64,000 bases of DNA. Source: a phage. This document shows, piece by piece, positions 1,599-14,994 of the stretch. The notes beneath the pieces are model-generated. The model had not been told where the DNA came from and did no database searches. It saw only the letters and a program-made list of their open reading frames with translations. Numbering within the stretch: the first letter of the stretch is position 1; each line of letters begins with the position of its first letter. The stretch lies in the sequence record PZ154897.1; one strand, given 5' to 3'. The translations under genes and the position numbers were made by a program.

Positions 1599-2453
1599 TC
1601 ACAATGAAGAAAATTCTTTAACTAAAGCCTGTAATGAAGCCTCTATTGGATATCCATTCTTAACTAACATTTTCCTAAACATCACATGTTTAGGACGATT
1701 ATATGATATCCACAATTCATACAATTTATCTTTATTATCCCAATGATAGCCTTTTCGTCGAGATGCTATATGAGCTTTTCTAATCTCCGGATTTTTCCAA
1801 CTAGCAGCTACTGAATTTGATATAGCTATTTTATATTCAGGTTTTGATAAAGCAGCGCGAACAGCCCTTTGGTGTTTAATTTTATTTTCTTCGTTATTAA
1901 ACCATTCCCTTGAAGCCATTGAAATTTTTTGTTTTGTTTTAAAATTATTTAATCTTTCTTTGTTATCTTTTCTATTTTTTGCTACTGAAAAATATTTTAA
2001 TGCCCTTTCTCTAGCAGCATTTCTATTTTGCGGATTTGAATAATACTGTTGAAGCCTTTTTGATATTGTGTCACTTACATCTTGTTTTATAAAACTATAT
2101 TCAGCAGCTATTAAATCAACTTCGGCTAAAGATAAATTTTTATATGTTTTTCCTGACATCATTCTATTTAAAGCATTTAGCATTTTTCCATTTTTACCTT
2201 TTGCTAATAAGAAATGTGCTTTGAAATGATTGAAATGACTTAAATTAACTAAATTCCATGTAGATTTTAAATATTCAGGAAATATTGATTTAGGAAGCAC
2301 GTGATGTGCTTCCGTTTTACCTGGAGTTTTAACAGTTGAATTCATAGAAATAAAATTAATGTAAGACTTGGCGTCTTCTTCGCTCAACACTAATTTTTCA
2401 ACTAATTCCTTTATTAAAAATTCATCATTAATATCAAGTTTAAAATTCTTCAC
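1599..2453 (-). CDS. HNH homing endonuclease, free-standing, with NUMOD-like C-terminal repeats
   Basis: 284 aa; HNH motif AHHVLPKS...NLVNLSHFNHFKAH; basic repeat-rich C-terminus; GTG start preceded by SD AAGGAA; lies between gene 46 and the 46.x/47 genes. Confidence 0.7.
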   Translation of the reverse strand: MKNFKLDINDEFLIKELVEKLVLSEEDAKSYINFISMNSTVKTPGKTEAHHVLPKSIFPEYLKSTWNLVNLSHFNHFKAHFLLAKGKNGKMLNALNRMMSGKTYKNLSLAEVDLIAAEYSFIKQDVSDTISKRLQQYYSNPQNRNAARERALKYFSVAKNRKDNKERLNNFKTKQKISMASREWFNNEENKIKHQRAVRAALSKPEYKIAISNSVAASWKNPEIRKAHIASRRKGYHWDNKDKLYELWISYNRPKHVMFRKMLVKNGYPIEASLQALVKEFSSL

Positions 2454-2656
2454 AAAAGATTCCTTTTAATGTATCTTTTAGACCATTCTATCATATCATC
2501 ATAATCTAAAAAGTATTCATCAAATTCAGCCATGCAAACAACACCTTGTGCTGCTTTTGATGTGATATAAATTATTCCAACATATCTAGAATCTTCTTCG
2601 GTGTAATCAATATTTGCTATGAATTCATCGTTAATGTCAAATGTCGAAAACTTCAC
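2450..2656 (-). CDS. Hypothetical small protein (46.x-like)
   Basis: ORF track 2450..2713; likely true start is GTG at 2656 with SD AAGGA; N-terminus MKFSTFDINDEF resembles the N-terminus of the adjacent HNH ORF. Confidence 0.4.
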   Translation of the reverse strand: MKFSTFDINDEFIANIDYTEEDSRYVGIIYITSKAAQGVVCMAEFDEYFLDYDDMIEWSKRYIKRNLL

Positions 2657-2900
2657 AGTATGCATCCTTAATACAAGATACAGCCATATCTTGTAATGAT
2701 TTAGGTGTGTCATTATCTAAAATGTTGAAGTTAAAAGATACAGCCCAGTCAGTGCAGACCGTGACCTTTTTAATACAATTATCTTCAACCTCTAACGGTT
2801 CAAACCAATATTCAATAATTTCTTTATGCCCAATATCATCTTTTACTTCACATTCAAAATGCTGACTCATCATAACATTTTTAAATTCATCAAAAGTCAT
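2637..2900 (-). CDS. Hypothetical protein, 87 aa
   Basis: ORF track; its ATG overlaps the gene 47 stop (ATGA), suggesting translational coupling. Confidence 0.45.
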   Translation of the reverse strand: MTFDEFKNVMMSQHFECEVKDDIGHKEIIEYWFEPLEVEDNCIKKVTVCTDWAVSFNFNILDNDTPKSLQDMAVSCIKDAYCEVFDI

Positions 2901-3916
2901 TGTGTTGCCTCTACATATAACTGATTTGCATATTGAATAAGTGCTTCGCGATCAGAATCAGTGATGTCTGGAATTGCATTAATGTATTCTTCCATCAACG
3001 TCTGAAGAGATTGAACTTCAACTTCTTCGCTATCATCTGACTCGACAGAGTTATCAATCTTTGACACAACTCGTAATGAATGCACAACTTTTTCTAGTTC
3101 AGATTCGAACTTCGTTAGATTTTTGTCTACCTCAGTTACTATAACACGCACTGATAGATTTGTAAAATCTTTATAGTCAATTTTTCCCTTAAATGGATAC
3201 TGAATTCGACGATGCCAGGTAGTGTTGTTTGGAATAAATTCCATTCGTTCTGTTTCTGTATCAAACATCCAGAACCCGCGAGGGTCATTCTCGTCACCTG
3301 CAGTTAGTGTCCATGGTGTCCCAATATATCTGACGTTAGCAGCCTCAGAGATAGTATGGAAGTGACCAGACCACACCTCTTTATAAGTCTTAAGGAAATC
3401 AGGTTCAAGACCGTGAGATTTCATTCCTTTATAAAAATAAAATCCATTCAACTCCCAGTGACCAACACAAAAAGAAGCAGATGAAGTTTTGATGTGTTCA
3501 AGAATTTCACCAGTATTTTCTTCGCACATCCAAGGAATTAAATCAATCAAACATCCGTCAAAATCTACTGTAGTAGGCTTATCATATACTTTAACATTAG
3601 GATATTTAGCCAAAAGCTCAGTAGAGGCATTTGGATGCATTACATTTTTATAGTGGAGATCGTGATTTCCTACAATAGTATGTAATGTGATTCCAACGTC
3701 ATCAAGCATTTGAACTATTTCGCGAGCAAACTCCATAGTTTTATGCGTGATCGCTTTTCGCACATCAAAAATATCACCATATTGAATCCATACAGTAATT
3801 CCGTTTTTCTTAGAATATTCTATCGCTTGCTTAATTCCATCAATTTGAATACCGCGAATCCACTCATCATCAGCTTTAACGCCTAAATGCCAATCACCTA
3901 AATTTAAAATTTTCAT
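2897..3916 (-). CDS. 47: Recombination endonuclease subunit gp47 (Mre11/SbcD-like phosphoesterase)
   Basis: 339 aa; calcineurin-like motifs GDWHLG, GNHD, GHFH; same length as T4 gp47. Confidence 0.92.
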   Translation of the reverse strand: MKILNLGDWHLGVKADDEWIRGIQIDGIKQAIEYSKKNGITVWIQYGDIFDVRKAITHKTMEFAREIVQMLDDVGITLHTIVGNHDLHYKNVMHPNASTELLAKYPNVKVYDKPTTVDFDGCLIDLIPWMCEENTGEILEHIKTSSASFCVGHWELNGFYFYKGMKSHGLEPDFLKTYKEVWSGHFHTISEAANVRYIGTPWTLTAGDENDPRGFWMFDTETERMEFIPNNTTWHRRIQYPFKGKIDYKDFTNLSVRVIVTEVDKNLTKFESELEKVVHSLRVVSKIDNSVESDDSEEVEVQSLQTLMEEYINAIPDITDSDREALIQYANQLYVEATQ

Positions 3917-9633: not shown

Positions 9634-10104
9634 TTAATCATGTTTCCACACCCCATCGGTATTTGACCAAAGTCGCTGATTATCTGAACCTCGCCACAGC
9701 TTTTTGGTTGGAAGATTTTTCTCATACTTCCCATCAATAATAACATCAACATATTTAAGCATTTCTAGTTGTTTAATATCTTCAAACTTGTACCCTGTCC
9801 ACAACCAAATGCTTTTATTTGGATAAAGATTTTTTACAGTTTGAACAATGCAATGAACATCATCTCGGTTATCAGGATAAAGAGGGTCACCTCCAGTTAT
9901 AGTTAATCCTTCTATATAATCATTATTCAAACATTCAATTAATTGTTCTAGTGTTTCACCAGTAAATGGAACGCCATTTCTAGCATTCCATGTTGATTTA
10001 TTATAACACCCTTCGCATTTATGCAAACAACCTGTAACGAAAAGAACTGTCCTGCATCCAGGACCATTAACAAAGCAGCACGGGTATATTCTGTCATAAT
10101 TCAT
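9634..10104 (-). CDS. nrdG: Anaerobic ribonucleotide reductase activating protein NrdG (radical SAM)
   Basis: CxxxCxxC cluster motif CLHKCEGC; start set at ATG 10104 (156 aa), which forms an ATGA overlap with the stop of the upstream endonuclease gene. Confidence 0.85.
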   Translation of the reverse strand: MNYDRIYPCCFVNGPGCRTVLFVTGCLHKCEGCYNKSTWNARNGVPFTGETLEQLIECLNNDYIEGLTITGGDPLYPDNRDDVHCIVQTVKNLYPNKSIWLWTGYKFEDIKQLEMLKYVDVIIDGKYEKNLPTKKLWRGSDNQRLWSNTDGVWKHD

Positions 10105-10931
10105 AATAATATCCAATTTTTCCAAGCTTCATCAGTAGAATTACAGCGTTTTAGTATAAGATGTCTAGAAACTTTTATGGCATTTGAGCACTTTTTAATT
10201 GAATCATATTTAATACCGTCAACTGAAACGGTTTTGCTAGTTGGAGAAATTTTTCCATACATTGGATTTTTTGAACCAACTTGAAGTCCTTTTAAAGCTT
10301 TTGAAAGCTTTTGTCTAGATTCCAATGACATGGGAGAATTCTTTTTACCTTCAATAATTCGCTTGCGATGAAGTTCGCGTTCTTCTTCACTCAAAGAATT
10401 GTAATATTTTTTAACACCGTTTGATATAGATAATTTATCTTTCTCAGACCGCTCTCCAGCTAATTTACTTCTAACATCTTTTCGCTTCATAGCTATGCTT
10501 ACGGCTTTATTTAAATTTGCTTGATGCTCTGGCGTACGTTTATATTTCTTTAAAGCACGTGAAATAGCTATTTTAGTTTCTTCTGTTCTCTTTTTACCTT
10601 TATTTGCTAAACTATTTTTGCGGCGATGTTCAAGTGTCTGTTCATAGGCAGTTCCACCTTTTCCACCAGGTTTAATATTATATGTATTTTCTTTTAGACA
10701 ATACTCTTCGGTTACAAGTTCAGCTTCTTTATCATACATTTGTTTTTCATTATCAAAAACATGTAAAATTTCTTTATTAAAATTTTTTCTACCATATTTT
10801 AATAAAGCGGCACGAATCAATGTTCCTGACCCCATATAACCGTCATTTATGTTATCGGTGCTATGCGCACCGATATATTCCTTTGAATTAATTATATTTG
10901 TTATTTTATAAATTATATAATACCTATGCAT
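10101..10931 (-). CDS. GIY-YIG homing endonuclease, Seg-like, NUMOD3 plus C-terminal DNA-binding region
   Basis: 276 aa; N-terminus YIIYKITNIINSKEYIGAHS; paralogous to segB N-terminus at 38739..39404; overlaps nrdD 3' end by 8 nt. Confidence 0.8.
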   Translation of the reverse strand: MHRYYIIYKITNIINSKEYIGAHSTDNINDGYMGSGTLIRAALLKYGRKNFNKEILHVFDNEKQMYDKEAELVTEEYCLKENTYNIKPGGKGGTAYEQTLEHRRKNSLANKGKKRTEETKIAISRALKKYKRTPEHQANLNKAVSIAMKRKDVRSKLAGERSEKDKLSISNGVKKYYNSLSEEERELHRKRIIEGKKNSPMSLESRQKLSKALKGLQVGSKNPMYGKISPTSKTVSVDGIKYDSIKKCSNAIKVSRHLILKRCNSTDEAWKNWILL

Positions 10932-12741
10932 GTTTTACTCGTTTTACCATTTCTTTCATTTTACCTAAATTCCATGGAACAACGCTAGGAGTTCCAAGAT
11001 ATCCGCATGTTCTTCTTATTGTGTTCATCTTTTTAGGATCAGTTTCTCCACAAATAGAACAAACAAATCCGTTTTCAGTAGGAGTCATTTCATGGGTACT
11101 TCCGCATGTAAAACATTTATCTACCGGCATGTTAACACCAAAATAATCTAAATGTTGTGCAGCATAATCCCATATGGCCTCAAGGCCTTTTAAGTTATTT
11201 TTCATATCAGGAAGTTCAACATAAGAAATGTGACCACCTGTCGCAATGAAATGATATGGCGCTTCACGAGAAATCTTTTCAAACGGAGTAATATTTTCTT
11301 CTACTGAAACGTGGAAACTGTTAGTGTACCAGCCTTTATCAGTAACATCCTTTACACTTCCATATTTTTCAGTATCAAGTTTACAGAAGCGATAGCACAG
11401 GTTTTCAGCAGGTGTAGAATACAAGCTAAAAGCAAAACCGGTTCTTTCAGTCCACTGCTTAAGACGAGTATTCATTTTAGTTAAAATTTCTTGTCCAATA
11501 TCACGACCAACAAGAATATTCAATTCGTGAATACCAATGTATCCTAGGGACACTGAACTTCTACCGTTTTTAAATAACTCAATTATATCATCATCGGGTT
11601 TAAGACGAACCCCGAATGCACCTTCTTGGTAAAGAATAGGAGCAACAGTAGCTTTAACTCCTTTTAAGGAACTAATTCTACACATCAATGCTTCAAAACA
11701 TAAATCAATTCGTTCATTGAACAATTCGGCAAATTTCTGTTCATTGAACTGTGTTCCAATATAAGAATCTAGCGCAATGCGAGGAAGATTCAGTGTTACA
11801 ACGCCAAGATTATTACGTCCATCAAGAATTTCATTACCAGTCGAATCTTTCCATACGCTCAAGAAACTGCGGCAACCCATTGGAGAAACAGGAATAGATG
11901 AACCTGTGATAGCTTTATTGTTCTTAGCCGAAATGATGTCAGGATACATTCTTTTGCTTGCACACTCTAAAGCAAGCTGTTTAATATCATAGTTCGGATC
12001 GTCTTTATAAAGATTAACACCTTCTTCAACGAACATAACAAGTTTAGGGAAAATAGGAGTTATCCCGTCACGACCAAGACCTTTAATACGATTTTTCAGA
12101 ATTGCTTTCTGAATCATTCGTTCAGTCCAGTCAGTTCCCGTACCAAATGTAATTGTTACAAAAGGCGTTTGTCCGTTTGAACTAAAGAGAGTATTTACTT
12201 CATATTCATAAGCTTGGAACGCATCGTATACATCTTTTTCTGTTTTAGATTGGGCATAATTCAATGCATCTGCGATTTGCCATTTTTCCGCGTCCTCAAT
12301 ATGTTTCGCATAGGTGCGTTTAACATAAGGAGAAAGTACTTTATCTACATTCGCAAAAGTCGTTCCACCATATTGATGGGAAGCAACCTGTGCAGTAATT
12401 TGTGCCATAATTGCAGTAGCAACACCGATTGATTTAGGAGTTTCAATCTGTGCATTACCGAGCTTAAACCCGTTCTCAAGCATTCCTTTTAAATCTACTA
12501 AACAACAATTAGTAAAAGGCAATGATATACTGTAATCTAAATCATGAAAATGAATTAATCCGACGTTATGAGCATTTACAATATGGCTTGGAAGAATACT
12601 ACAAGCGATATGTTTAGAAACAATACCAGCCATTAAATCTCTTTTTGTTGGAAAGACACGAGAATCTTTGTTGGCATTTTCGGTATTTAATTCTTTATCT
12701 TTATTTGAAATAAAATTTAAAACATCTTTCTCTAAAGACAT
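10924..12741 (-). CDS. nrdD: Anaerobic ribonucleoside-triphosphate reductase NrdD, uninterrupted (no intron)
   Basis: 605 aa; C-terminal zinc ribbon CFTCGS...CSICG and glycyl-radical motif RTCGYLG. Confidence 0.93.
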   Translation of the reverse strand: MSLEKDVLNFISNKDKELNTENANKDSRVFPTKRDLMAGIVSKHIACSILPSHIVNAHNVGLIHFHDLDYSISLPFTNCCLVDLKGMLENGFKLGNAQIETPKSIGVATAIMAQITAQVASHQYGGTTFANVDKVLSPYVKRTYAKHIEDAEKWQIADALNYAQSKTEKDVYDAFQAYEYEVNTLFSSNGQTPFVTITFGTGTDWTERMIQKAILKNRIKGLGRDGITPIFPKLVMFVEEGVNLYKDDPNYDIKQLALECASKRMYPDIISAKNNKAITGSSIPVSPMGCRSFLSVWKDSTGNEILDGRNNLGVVTLNLPRIALDSYIGTQFNEQKFAELFNERIDLCFEALMCRISSLKGVKATVAPILYQEGAFGVRLKPDDDIIELFKNGRSSVSLGYIGIHELNILVGRDIGQEILTKMNTRLKQWTERTGFAFSLYSTPAENLCYRFCKLDTEKYGSVKDVTDKGWYTNSFHVSVEENITPFEKISREAPYHFIATGGHISYVELPDMKNNLKGLEAIWDYAAQHLDYFGVNMPVDKCFTCGSTHEMTPTENGFVCSICGETDPKKMNTIRRTCGYLGTPSVVPWNLGKMKEMVKRVKHA

Positions 12742-13553
12742 AATTCTAATTTATCCTTTTGAAATTCTTCGTCTAAATATGGGTTCCAACCCATTTTAAA
12801 CCTTTTGATGAAATTATCAATTCTAAATTTCGGTAAGTTTAAATCCGCAAAAATAGATGATTTACTTTTAAAATATGGACCTAAATAATCATATAAAATT
12901 TCTGCGTATTTTAACCATAATATACAAGTACCAGATTTAATTGCTCTCGGAGTTTTCCAAGGTTTTACACCATACATCGGATTTCCACTTCCTTTATGCC
13001 TGATAGAAGATGAAATTCCAATTTTAATTTTAGCTTCCTTTGTGTGCGAAAATCCATGATGTGGATTTTCTTTCCAGTATTTTTTAGAAGCTTCTGATAT
13101 TTTCTTTCTGGCTAAATTAGTATGATGCTTTCCATAAAATCCATGATTTTTACCTTTATTACGATTTCTTTTAATCATGGTTATTGATTGCTTTTCTCTA
13201 GTTTCTTTAGAAGGAGAAATACCATACGTTGTAAATTGACCGTCAGCATATGCTAAATTGAAATACTCTTTATTCCATATATCTTTTTCTATATTCTTTT
13301 GAAATTCAGCTTCAATGCTAGTTATTTGTTCATCTCCGACTAATTGAAAATATAATATTTCAACTTTCGGCGTTTCTTTCAACAGGGCTTTTTGAAATTC
13401 GGAAGATGACGAAGACGAATAATAAAATTTACCATTTTTATCAATAATATTCGTTCCGTCAAAAGTGCAATTGGTTTTACTTCCAATATAATAATATGGC
13501 GGGGTTTTAGCATTAATTCTACTAATAAATGATAGTTTATATACTACATTCAT
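12732..13553 (-). CDS. Putative homing endonuclease (GIY-YIG-like N-terminus, NUMOD3-type repeats)
   Basis: 273 aa; VYKLSFI...YYYIGSKTN; repeats GKHHTNLARKKISEASKKYW and GFSHTKEAKIKIG; ATGA overlap with gene 49 stop; overlaps nrdD start by 10 nt. Confidence 0.55.
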   Translation of the reverse strand: MNVVYKLSFISRINAKTPPYYYIGSKTNCTFDGTNIIDKNGKFYYSSSSSSEFQKALLKETPKVEILYFQLVGDEQITSIEAEFQKNIEKDIWNKEYFNLAYADGQFTTYGISPSKETREKQSITMIKRNRNKGKNHGFYGKHHTNLARKKISEASKKYWKENPHHGFSHTKEAKIKIGISSSIRHKGSGNPMYGVKPWKTPRAIKSGTCILWLKYAEILYDYLGPYFKSKSSIFADLNLPKFRIDNFIKRFKMGWNPYLDEEFQKDKLELCL

Positions 13554-14023
13554 TTTAAACTCTTTCTAAGCTGCTTCTTGAATGAAGCTATTAATTGTGT
13601 TTTGGTGTCAGATTCATTATATTCAAATCCTCTTTGAAGCATCTCGGCCATCATTTCCTCTTTTCCTAAACGAGAAAATTCCTTTGATTTATCTCCAACG
13701 AAGTTAGGGTGAATATTATTTTGGGTGTAATCGGATTTTAAATAAGTAAGTAAATTTTCTAACCATTCAAGATAATCAACACCTTGTCCCTTTAAGCCAG
13801 AACGATTAAATTTGTGCTTCATTTGACCTTCTGCGGCATTGCATAGATTACAAAGCAATCCACGTACCTTTCCTGCTTTTGGTCCATTTAATTCATGGTC
13901 ATGATCGAGGTGATTAGCTTGAACGTCAGGATTTAGTTCTCGTTGGCAAATTAAGCATTTACCATTTTGTGCATCATAAAATTTCTGTTTTTCTTCTTTA
14001 TATAATTTGCCAGTCAATAACAT
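13550..14023 (-). CDS. 49: Endonuclease VII (Holliday junction resolvase)
   Basis: 157 aa; zinc-binding cysteines CLICQ...CNLCN and HLDHDHE motif; matches T4 gp49 length. Confidence 0.9.
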   Translation of the reverse strand: MLLTGKLYKEEKQKFYDAQNGKCLICQRELNPDVQANHLDHDHELNGPKAGKVRGLLCNLCNAAEGQMKHKFNRSGLKGQGVDYLEWLENLLTYLKSDYTQNNIHPNFVGDKSKEFSRLGKEEMMAEMLQRGFEYNESDTKTQLIASFKKQLRKSLK

Positions 14024-14064
14024 AATAAACCCTTACCTTAAATAGATAAGGGTATTTATTATTT

Positions 14065-14568
14065 TCAAGTATTGTAAAACATTTGATTCAATCGCTTATA
14101 TTGCCGAATCTTTTGGTCAGAAAAAGAAATTTGAGTTTCAAGCCATTCAATATATTCTGCCGCAGCTTGCATCAAATTTCCTTCATAGCCATCATTGTTT
14201 TCTTGCGCAGCTAATTTAGCTAATGCATATGAAATGCGTTCACCTTGAAAAGCGGCTTTAGGTTTATGAATAGCTTGATCAACTCGTTCTACAACTTCTT
14301 CAATTTCGCCGTTTTCTACTGATTCAGTATTCCATAGGCACCAATATGTAATTGGCTTATCATAGATGTTAATAACCTTTCCGTCAGAAAGTTCAATTTC
14401 AATAATTCCAGTATCAGGTTCTATATCATCTTCACATTCTTTTGCAAGTTCACGAACTTTAAAGACAGTACCTGCACTAAGTTCCGGCCAGTAATTACAC
14501 AGCCCTTTATCAGCACGATTAATTCTAAACCACTTATCTACTGTAATCATGTCCCATCTCCATATCAA
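14065..14568 (-). CDS. Hypothetical protein at the position of T4 pin (protease inhibitor); identity not verified
   Basis: ORF track 167 aa; an internal Met 6 codons in would give 161 aa. Confidence 0.45.
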   Translation of the reverse strand: MIWRWDMITVDKWFRINRADKGLCNYWPELSAGTVFKVRELAKECEDDIEPDTGIIEIELSDGKVINIYDKPITYWCLWNTESVENGEIEEVVERVDQAIHKPKAAFQGERISYALAKLAAQENNDGYEGNLMQAAAEYIEWLETQISFSDQKIRQYKRLNQMFYNT

Positions 14569-14673
14569 TTATGTCATTTATTGTAGGTTCATTATATACT
14601 GTTTCTTCATCAGTGTAAACCGGTTCTTCCGGTTCTGGCTCTACTGTTTCCCATCTAGCCGCCCACCAAGGTT

Positions 14674-14994
14674 TTATAGCGTAATCCATTCTCGTATTGT
14701 CTGAGTTACTACACGTTCACGGGGCTCGACTAATTCAACAGTCGGAACTGCATAATACCAGTCAGAATGGTAAGAACCTGAGCGAGATTCATTTACAGAC
14801 ACATGAACGTTATGTTTTGGACTAAAATAAACACACTGACGATATTGACATTTACCGTCTTGCACCCAGTCTTCTATTTCGACAGGTTTAAGATAATCGG
14901 AAAAATCGAAATCATAGTTTTCTGAAAATGCATCATGGTCTTCAATGATTTCACTCAGAACTGCATCAACATCTAATTTATTTTCAATATTCAT
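14674..14994 (-). CDS. Hypothetical acidic protein, 106 aa
   Basis: ORF track. Confidence 0.45.
   Translation of the reverse strand: MNIENKLDVDAVLSEIIEDHDAFSENYDFDFSDYLKPVEIEDWVQDGKCQYRQCVYFSPKHNVHVSVNESRSGSYHSDWYYAVPTVELVEPRERVVTQTIREWITL

Follow-up and report, generated by a model that had tools for sequence, protein, structure and literature searches.

The subject of this study is the nrdD region of a phage DNA stretch of 64,000 nucleotides (nt; sequence record PZ154897.1, hereafter the window), in which the minus strand carries gene 49, an unnamed open reading frame (ORF) of 273 amino acids (aa; ORF273), nrdD, ORF276 (segH) and nrdG, in this order. We consider it likely, and the best explanation of the locus, that two independent promoter-less homing-endonuclease cassettes occupy the ends of nrdD, each consisting of an endonuclease gene and a replaced stretch of nrdD. 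The downstream cassette would comprise segH and the last ~75 nt of nrdD, the upstream cassette ORF273 and the first ~225 nt. Judged from comparisons of alleles, the endonuclease genes are each linked to a recoded nrdD end, and nrdD itself reads as a three-part chimera of a 5' patch, a T-even-type core and a 3' patch. The elements flanking nrdD are of an ordinary kind, one known (SegH) and one uncharacterised (ORF273). The window derives from a T-even (Tequatrovirus-type) phage, the closest public match being Escherichia phage OES_C-3 (97.9% identity over 4.5 kb). Both flanking ORFs are real genes and not chance ORFs, because they are intact in many public phage genomes.

The upstream cassette is delimited by sharp steps in sequence identity. 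ORF273 (12732..13553, minus strand) lies exactly at the junction of gene 49 and nrdD, and the diverged 5' patch of nrdD (nt 1 to ~225, codons 1-75; 12517..12741, minus strand) was defined by comparison with T4, T6 and RB69. T4 and T6 do not carry ORF273; their gene 49 matches that of the window at 98-100% identity as far as the insertion point, but identity is only 60-78% over the first ~225 nt of nrdD and rises abruptly to 93-95% from about nt 237 onwards. Across nt 1-225, the window shares 64% identity with T4 and with RB69 alike, whereas T4 and RB69, which belong to different genera, are 95% identical to each other. NrdD starts with MSLEKDVLNFISNKDKELN... in phages carrying ORF273 and with MTIEKEIEGLIHKTNKDLL... 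in T4 and T6.

The patch and the gene are found together in public genomes. All numbers of genomes given here are simple record counts; roughly 650-840 records contain this region. ORF273 DNA is present at an identity of at least 95% in 50 phage records, while T4, T6 and RB69, in which gene 49 and nrdD are joined directly by ATGA, represent clean empty sites. At the same threshold the patch occurs in exactly 50 records, namely the 49 with full-length ORF273 (49/49) and phage OLB35, and no record shows the patch at 90-95% identity; the two lists thus differ by one record each, OLB35 and FL18. The eight ORF273-carrying alleles compared have the patch in common but continue into at least four different downstream haplotypes, some of them shared with T4 or T6. 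Because the patch is shared across these haplotypes, ORF273 and the patch appear to form a single heterologous block that has been moved among different nrdD backgrounds. The patch is also the probable location of an immune version of the endonuclease target.

A comparable link exists at the other end of nrdD. In the alleles with segH (window, T6, SF6 and FL18), nrdD ends with GTPSVVPWNLGKMKEMVKRVKHA, as opposed to GNPNERGFNLGKNKEIMHRVKHQ in the endonuclease-free allele of OLB35, the mobC-carrying allele of T4 and RB69. The nucleotide divergence is limited to the last ~75 nt of nrdD (about 22 codons; 10924..10998, minus strand), and the first ~45 nt of nrdG also differ from the endonuclease-free allele. 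The downstream gene (10101..10931, minus strand), a free-standing GIY-YIG homing-endonuclease gene in the nrdD/nrdG slot, can be assigned to the published SegH: its 276-aa product is identical in 275 of 276 residues to SegH of phage LZ2 (ABI48951.1; AY262139.2, a 2.7-kb GenBank entry naming segH). The two genes share 99.7% nucleotide identity, a length of 831 bp, the slot, and the 8-nt and 4-nt overlaps with their neighbours, and in T6 (MH550421) a gene of 831 bp with identical overlaps is annotated as segH. The protein matches phrog_314 (E 2e-60) and, below threshold, the I-TevI DNA-binding domain. The slot is thus occupied by mobC in T4 and by segH in T6, LZ2 and the window. This agrees with the listing of T4 mobC between nrdD and nrdG (PMC2988022, Table 1) and with Sandegren et al. 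2005 (Nucleic Acids Res 33:6203), whose title, as given in PMC2790892, says that SegH replaces mobC in several T4-related phages. As a separate observation, segH contains a perfect 9-bp inverted repeat with a 5-nt loop, TATCGGTGC-N5-GCACCGATA (window 10853-10875), within the codons for EYIGAHSTD, which include the YIG motif; it was scanned as terminator-like on the antisense (+) strand.

In contrast to segH, the upstream gene has no characterised counterpart at its locus: our literature search found no description of an endonuclease gene between gene 49 and nrdD. ORF273 is related to T4 SegG, to which its aa 1-126 are 40% identical (E 9e-27), and the SegG variant of phage SP18 aligns with it over 97% of the length at 32% identity. 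It matches phrog_7504 ('homing endonuclease') and is labelled 'homing endonuclease', 'hypothetical protein' or, once, 'SegG' (JK42) in the records. The nuclease domain covers aa 1 to ~105 (13239..13553, minus strand) and is modelled with the GIY-YIG alpha/beta fold. It is followed by a DNA-binding part (12732..13217, minus strand) of NUMOD3-type repeats (aa ~113-200) and a C-terminal domain (aa ~201-273), for which the structure model is of low confidence. Pfam NUMOD3 is matched in both ORFs flanking nrdD, in ORF273 at aa 130-153 (E 6e-7), and the tail of ORF273 resembles that of T4 SegG (GW.P..D.E.). The N-terminus carries the motifs VVY (aa 3-5) and YYIG (aa 21-24), of which Y5, Y22 and G24 are invariant in 18 SegG-like sequences. 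ORF273 has all residues that are invariant in these 18 nuclease domains, namely M1, Y5, R12, P19, Y22, G24, S25, K26, Y44, S47, E81, N99 and A103, and its E81 and N99 align with E75 and N90 of I-TevI (ERE/YNI region). Searches against solved structures with both flanking proteins, and with a profile of the SegG-like nuclease domain, gave chance-level matches only. All eight alleles of ORF273 are intact (8/8), and the ratio of nonsynonymous to synonymous polymorphism (pN/pS) of 0.06-0.38, about 0.15 over the whole gene, indicates purifying selection. The first-pass annotation had proposed, from the DNA letters alone, a Seg-like GIY-YIG endonuclease gene downstream of nrdD and a second free-standing, endonuclease-like gene with NUMOD3 repeats upstream of it, and had asked whether catalytic residues would survive proper alignment. 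The assignment is borne out, both genes being of the free-standing GIY-YIG type, and catalytic-type residues are present in the flanking ORFs. ORF273 therefore very probably encodes an active, free-standing SegG-type GIY-YIG endonuclease, the first at this locus to come to notice as uncharacterised. The gene of T4 SegG, likewise a free-standing GIY-YIG endonuclease, has genes 59 and 32 as its neighbours (Liu et al. 2003 J Mol Biol 334:13, cited in PMC2988022). As ORF273 lies at 49/nrdD, it is a paralog of SegG and not its ortholog.

Relatives of ORF273 were sought in viral contigs, by a metagenome scan and by protein search. With respect to distant relatives sharing its DNA-binding part, these scans returned near-identical copies or nuclease-domain relatives only, so that the contig L010 remains the only diverged example. 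One nuclease-domain relative is encoded at positions 4001-4822 of L008, a contig of ENA ERZ13617658. It shares an ORF273-like nuclease domain (57% identity, 135 aa), has an unrelated C-terminal half, and is flanked by gp5 and a gene resembling T4 5.1 (Pfam Phage_T4_Y07E); we took this position as the T4 segC slot. The L008-type protein thus looks like a nuclease domain recombined with another DNA-binding part.

L010, a 4.7-kb contig from run SRR27536177 (Logan), provides a view of where the ORF273 enzyme may cut. It carries, in this order, gene 49, an ATGA-coupled 5' remnant of nrdD of 55 codons, a homolog of ORF273 and a complete nrdD, the remnant arrangement being located at 2188-3180. The complete nrdD has another 5' end than the remnant, and its start codon region and the endonuclease gene overlap in the manner seen in the window. 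The homolog is 54-66% identical to ORF273 (54% in the DNA-binding part). The simplest reading is that a resident nrdD was broken near codon 55 or beyond, that homology on the gene 49 side was lacking, and that the donor endonuclease gene together with its own nrdD 5' end was joined to the break. Based on this arrangement and on the end of the patch near nt 225-237 in the T-even phages, we propose that the enzyme probably cuts T4-type nrdD near nt ~165-240. This segment encodes ...KAHESGIIHVHDIDYSPALPF, around a conserved HxHDxDY-coding stretch.

Alternatively, ORF273 could be active but recognise the gene 49/nrdD junction, its site being disrupted by the insertion itself, and the patch would then be passenger DNA of the first invaded lineage that cannot recombine away. 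The insertion is indeed exact at the ATGA junction. Moreover, the last ~115 nt of gene 49 are nearly invariant across T4, T6, RB69, OLB35 and FL18, and such conservation across genera would suit a target; heterology alone would account for the linkage of patch and gene. However, the L010 homolog is not at this junction but follows nrdD codon 55 and brings its own nrdD 5' end, and characterised free-standing GIY-YIG enzymes of T4 cut at a distance, inside the neighbouring gene, and co-convert flanking sequence (PMC2988022). We therefore regard a junction target as unlikely and favour cleavage within nrdD. The conserved gene 49 3' end of the Mosigvirus phages OLB35 and FL18 was also considered as a co-conversion tract; this was rejected, as RB69 is equally conserved there without the element.

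Several points weigh against an active ORF273 with a target in the 5' region of nrdD. The target position is a predicted one, and L010 is a single metagenomic contig in which the endonuclease homolog is frameshifted near codon 50. The constant right border of the patch, a candidate marker of the cut site, had to be rejected as such: heterology alone explains it, since crossovers cannot resolve inside DNA of 64% identity. Furthermore, SegH reportedly cleaves site-specifically near its own locus and homes in mixed infection, but is said to cleave the DNA of its own phage as well; if so, a recoded flank need not mean immunity. With regard to the protein, neither Pfam GIY-YIG profile (PF01541, PF19835) matches ORF273 at E <= 0.1, and there is no arginine at the position aligned with I-TevI R27 in ORF273, SegG or I-TevII, the family-invariant R12, located between the two motifs, being the only residue that could stand in for it. 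These last two points would suit a reading in which ORF273 is no longer a nuclease but a decaying or domesticated DNA-binding remnant, kept for the nrdD start region embedded in it. Initiation of nrdD inside ORF273 would penalise a clean loss of the gene, and decay or loss is seen at this locus in OLB35, FL18, PD112 and sutha. On the other hand, the SegG-like relatives also lack a precomputed N-terminal Pfam domain, and the Pfam GIY-YIG profile appears not to cover this subfamily. Purifying selection on uniformly intact alleles and the retention of every family-invariant residue are difficult to reconcile with a remnant, as is the activity of the closest characterised relative, T4 SegG being listed as an active enzyme whose target is gene 32 beside its own gene (PMC2988022, Table 1). 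The cassette also occurs in two genera and on no fewer than four nrdD backgrounds, which implies recent movement. Loss of nuclease function thus seems improbable to us, and we retain the active enzyme in the following scenario.

Considering these findings, we propose that the upstream cassette would spread in four steps, in which (i) during mixed infection the ORF273 enzyme would cut the conserved T4-type 5' region of nrdD in a phage without ORF273, most likely at about nt 165-240; (ii) the break would be repaired from the ORF273-carrying genome, with homology found in the conserved gene 49 3' end and in the nrdD sequence past nt ~240; (iii) ORF273 and the diverged patch would be copied together, as a block of ~1.05 kb replacing 225 bp; (iv) the patch, at 64% identity, would be too different to be a good substrate or to recombine internally, so that the carrier would be protected and the patch would stay linked to the gene. 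A more far-reaching reading, which we put forward tentatively and hold to be somewhat less probable than its negation, is that the ORF273 element is a composite mobile unit equipped with a spare, cleavage-resistant 5' end of its target gene. Such a unit could enter coding sequence without inactivating it and would overwrite the resident 5' end in T-even phages; selfish cassettes would then dictate both termini of NrdD, and where two cassettes are paired, they would also favour loss of the gene that they enclose, as happened in FL18. The arrangement of L010, with codons 1-55 of the resident nrdD left as a dead stub ahead of the endonuclease gene and a complete nrdD, fits this composite-unit reading.

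The organisation of the junctions suggests how the inserted genes are expressed. The gene 49 TGA overlaps the ORF273 ATG as ATGA (13550..13553), ORF273 and nrdD overlap by 10 nt at the nrdD start, nrdD and segH by 8 nt (10924..10931) at the nrdD stop region, and the segH TGA overlaps the nrdG ATG as ATGA (10104..10101). The coordinates, the two overlaps and the couplings to gene 49 and nrdG in the first-pass annotation are all accurate. Neither the T4 late promoter motif TATAAATA nor a MotA-box is present on the sense strand from 9650 to 14700, and sigma-70-like sites (23) are as frequent as expected from shuffling (23.2). The sequence preceding the ORF273 ATG (AGAAAGAGTTTAAAATGA) equals that preceding the nrdD ATG in T4 and T6. 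Since nrdD of T4 and T6 has the same leader and is likewise ATGA-coupled to gene 49, ORF273 has taken over the translation start region of nrdD. In the window, nrdD starts 10 nt before the ORF273 stop, with AAGGA 12 nt upstream, so that the nrdD start codon and its present ribosome-binding site, whichever that is, fall within the final codons of ORF273. Translation of nrdD would accordingly depend on ORF273. At the other end, segH starts inside the last codons of nrdD. Promoter-less cassettes and overlap coupling of this kind have been described for segC, segF, segG, mobA and mobC (PMC2988022).

With its two patches included, nrdD (10924..12741, minus strand) is one uninterrupted ORF of 605 aa. 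It covers the whole Pfam NRDD model (1-562 of 562, E 2e-170) and also matches the glycyl-radical domain (Gly_radical). Alignments with T4 and with the intron-bearing vB_Eco_F26 show the intron as a clean gap at ~12204/12205, and the F26 exons match nt 1-536 and 539-900 of the window gene. The dinucleotide step 12204..12205 (minus strand; nrdD nt ~537) is thus the empty insertion site of the I-TevII group I intron. This confirms the reported absence of the T4 intron.

Once established, the cassettes decay in different ways. In the Mosigvirus OLB35 (MH992122.1, an UNVERIFIED record; L006, 2700-2742), ORF273 is deleted and the patch kept: the first 7 codons of ORF273 are fused in frame with nrdD near codon 9 (MNVVYKL followed by LYFISNKDKELN), giving the chimeric NrdD N-terminus MNVVYKLLYFISNKDKELN. 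In FL18, also a Mosigvirus (PP400780.1; L007, 2117-3608), nearly all of nrdD is gone. Here, codons 1-201 of ORF273 are fused in frame with the last ~20 nrdD codons (..KPWKTP followed by SVVPWNLGKMKEMVKRVKHA), with AACTCC microhomology at the junction, and segH and nrdG follow. As FL18 lacks almost all of nrdD, the gene is not essential for propagation of this phage, and its description as an essential gene in the first-pass annotation does not apply. Decay of segH is represented by a 577-bp internal deletion in PD112 (L024, about 727-1035) and by a frameshift in sutha that splits the gene into two ORFs (L028, 1801-2635). A single locus therefore displays a life-cycle series from the empty site (RB69) through invasion with a recoded flank (window), internal decay (PD112, sutha) and deletion of the endonuclease gene leaving the flank (OLB35) to loss of the host gene where it is flanked by two endonuclease genes (FL18).

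The two cassettes occur in many combinations. About 70 records contain segH. A 3453-nt query spanning the region is covered to at least 80% in 12 records, of which 2 are PD112 records and 10 have both genes intact (OES_C-3, Pu-Krd-SF1/2/5/6/7, Lv5cm, vB_Eco_F26 and fPS-2 twice). Lv5cm, F26 and fPS-2 additionally contain the I-TevII intron and thus have three endonuclease genes in and around nrdD. RB69 has neither gene, T6 only segH, Lutter only ORF273, and T4 has mobC and the I-TevII intron. Bas43 (TadeuszReichstein; L027, 795-1634) combines ORF273 with a different endonuclease-like gene of 279 aa in the nrdD/nrdG slot. This gene overlaps its neighbours in a mobC-like manner, by 11 nt with nrdG and 4 nt with nrdD, and Pfam gave weak NUMOD1 and I-HmuI-NUMOD matches for its product but no nuclease domain.

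These data bear on the proposal, made in the first-pass annotation, that two endonucleases flanking one gene are unusually dense and mark a hot spot of mobile-element competition. On this view, the pairing would reflect competition or another interaction of the two elements over the same essential gene. Both are present in 10-13 records, compared with about 5 expected under independence (from ~70 occurrences of segH and 50 of ORF273 in about 650 T-even-type records), both cassettes alter the ends of nrdD, and FL18 is an example of such a pair deleting the intervening gene. However, near-identical isolates and duplicate RefSeq/GenBank records account for the excess, and co-occurrence is close to independent assortment. 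Every single and double combination occurs, nrdD is dispensable in FL18, and T4 itself already has two endonuclease genes here. We accordingly see little likelihood in an interaction, and the counts contain no evidence of competition. The density is not unusual either, given that the same arrangement is found in 10 public records, that three phages also contain the intron and that T4 has mobC and I-TevII; the attraction of mobile elements by ribonucleotide reductase genes is already in the literature (PMC2988022, PMC3653736). Two independent insertions therefore remain our preferred explanation.

The genes on either side of the two cassettes are conventional. Gene 49 (13550..14023, minus strand) encodes endonuclease VII (Pfam Endonuclease_7 and Endonuc-dimeris), and its product is identical to T4 gp49. 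Directly upstream of its start, at 14029-14053, lies a hairpin with a 10-bp stem, ACCCTTATCTATTTAAGGTAAGGGT then TTATTATG, where the record of phage Lutter annotates a terminator; this hairpin also resembles the known translational hairpin of T4 gene 49. On the other side, nrdG (9634..10104, minus strand, ATG at 10104) encodes the activase (Pfam Fer4_12 and Radical_SAM). Its first ~300 nt are mosaic among T-even phages (window 9830-10104; L004, 2620-2917). T4, which carries mobC, is 45-80% identical to the window in the 5' third of nrdG and 97-100% identical further on, and Pu-Krd-SF6 differs from the window by 10-22% at 10012-10132 despite an identical segH.

In summary, our analysis adds one uncharacterised free-standing endonuclease to the T-even set. 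Its most useful result is the cassette structure, an endonuclease gene combined with a recoded gene end, together with the natural deletion series, which lead to a specific target prediction for ORF273 (nrdD nt ~165-240). The ends of NrdD are not vertically inherited with the core in these phages, which matters for nrdD-based phylogenies. The understanding of homing endonucleases in general is unchanged by these findings.

Compared with known systems, the downstream gene is the same as segH of LZ2 and T6, without substantive difference, and the present analysis shows segH to be linked with the recoded final ~75 nt of nrdD. The upstream cassette resembles that of T4 SegG in its nuclease domain, its similar C-terminal tail, its promoter-less organisation in the orientation of its neighbours and its position adjoining the predicted target gene. 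It differs in its locus (49/nrdD instead of 59/32), in being 63 aa longer and in the NUMOD3 repeats between nuclease domain and tail. The general mechanism that we propose is that of intronless homing and marker exclusion by T4 SegF, in which the neighbouring gene is cut in a phage without the endonuclease and the repair brings in the endonuclease gene along with donor sequence from its flanks (Belle et al. 2002 Genes Dev 16:351; PMC2988022). In contrast to the SegF flank, which is a graded tract of few polymorphisms, the flank of ORF273 is a sharply bounded block of 64% identity. T4 mobC, the I-TevII intron and Aeh1 mobE (Friedrich et al. 2007 PNAS 104:6176) likewise represent mobile endonuclease genes in or beside ribonucleotide reductase genes; however, mobC and mobE encode HNH enzymes and I-TevII is intronic, unlike segH and ORF273. 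Whereas Aeh1 mobE splits nrdA into two polypeptides, the ORF273 cassette in L010 would restore a full-length gene by means of its spare 5' end.

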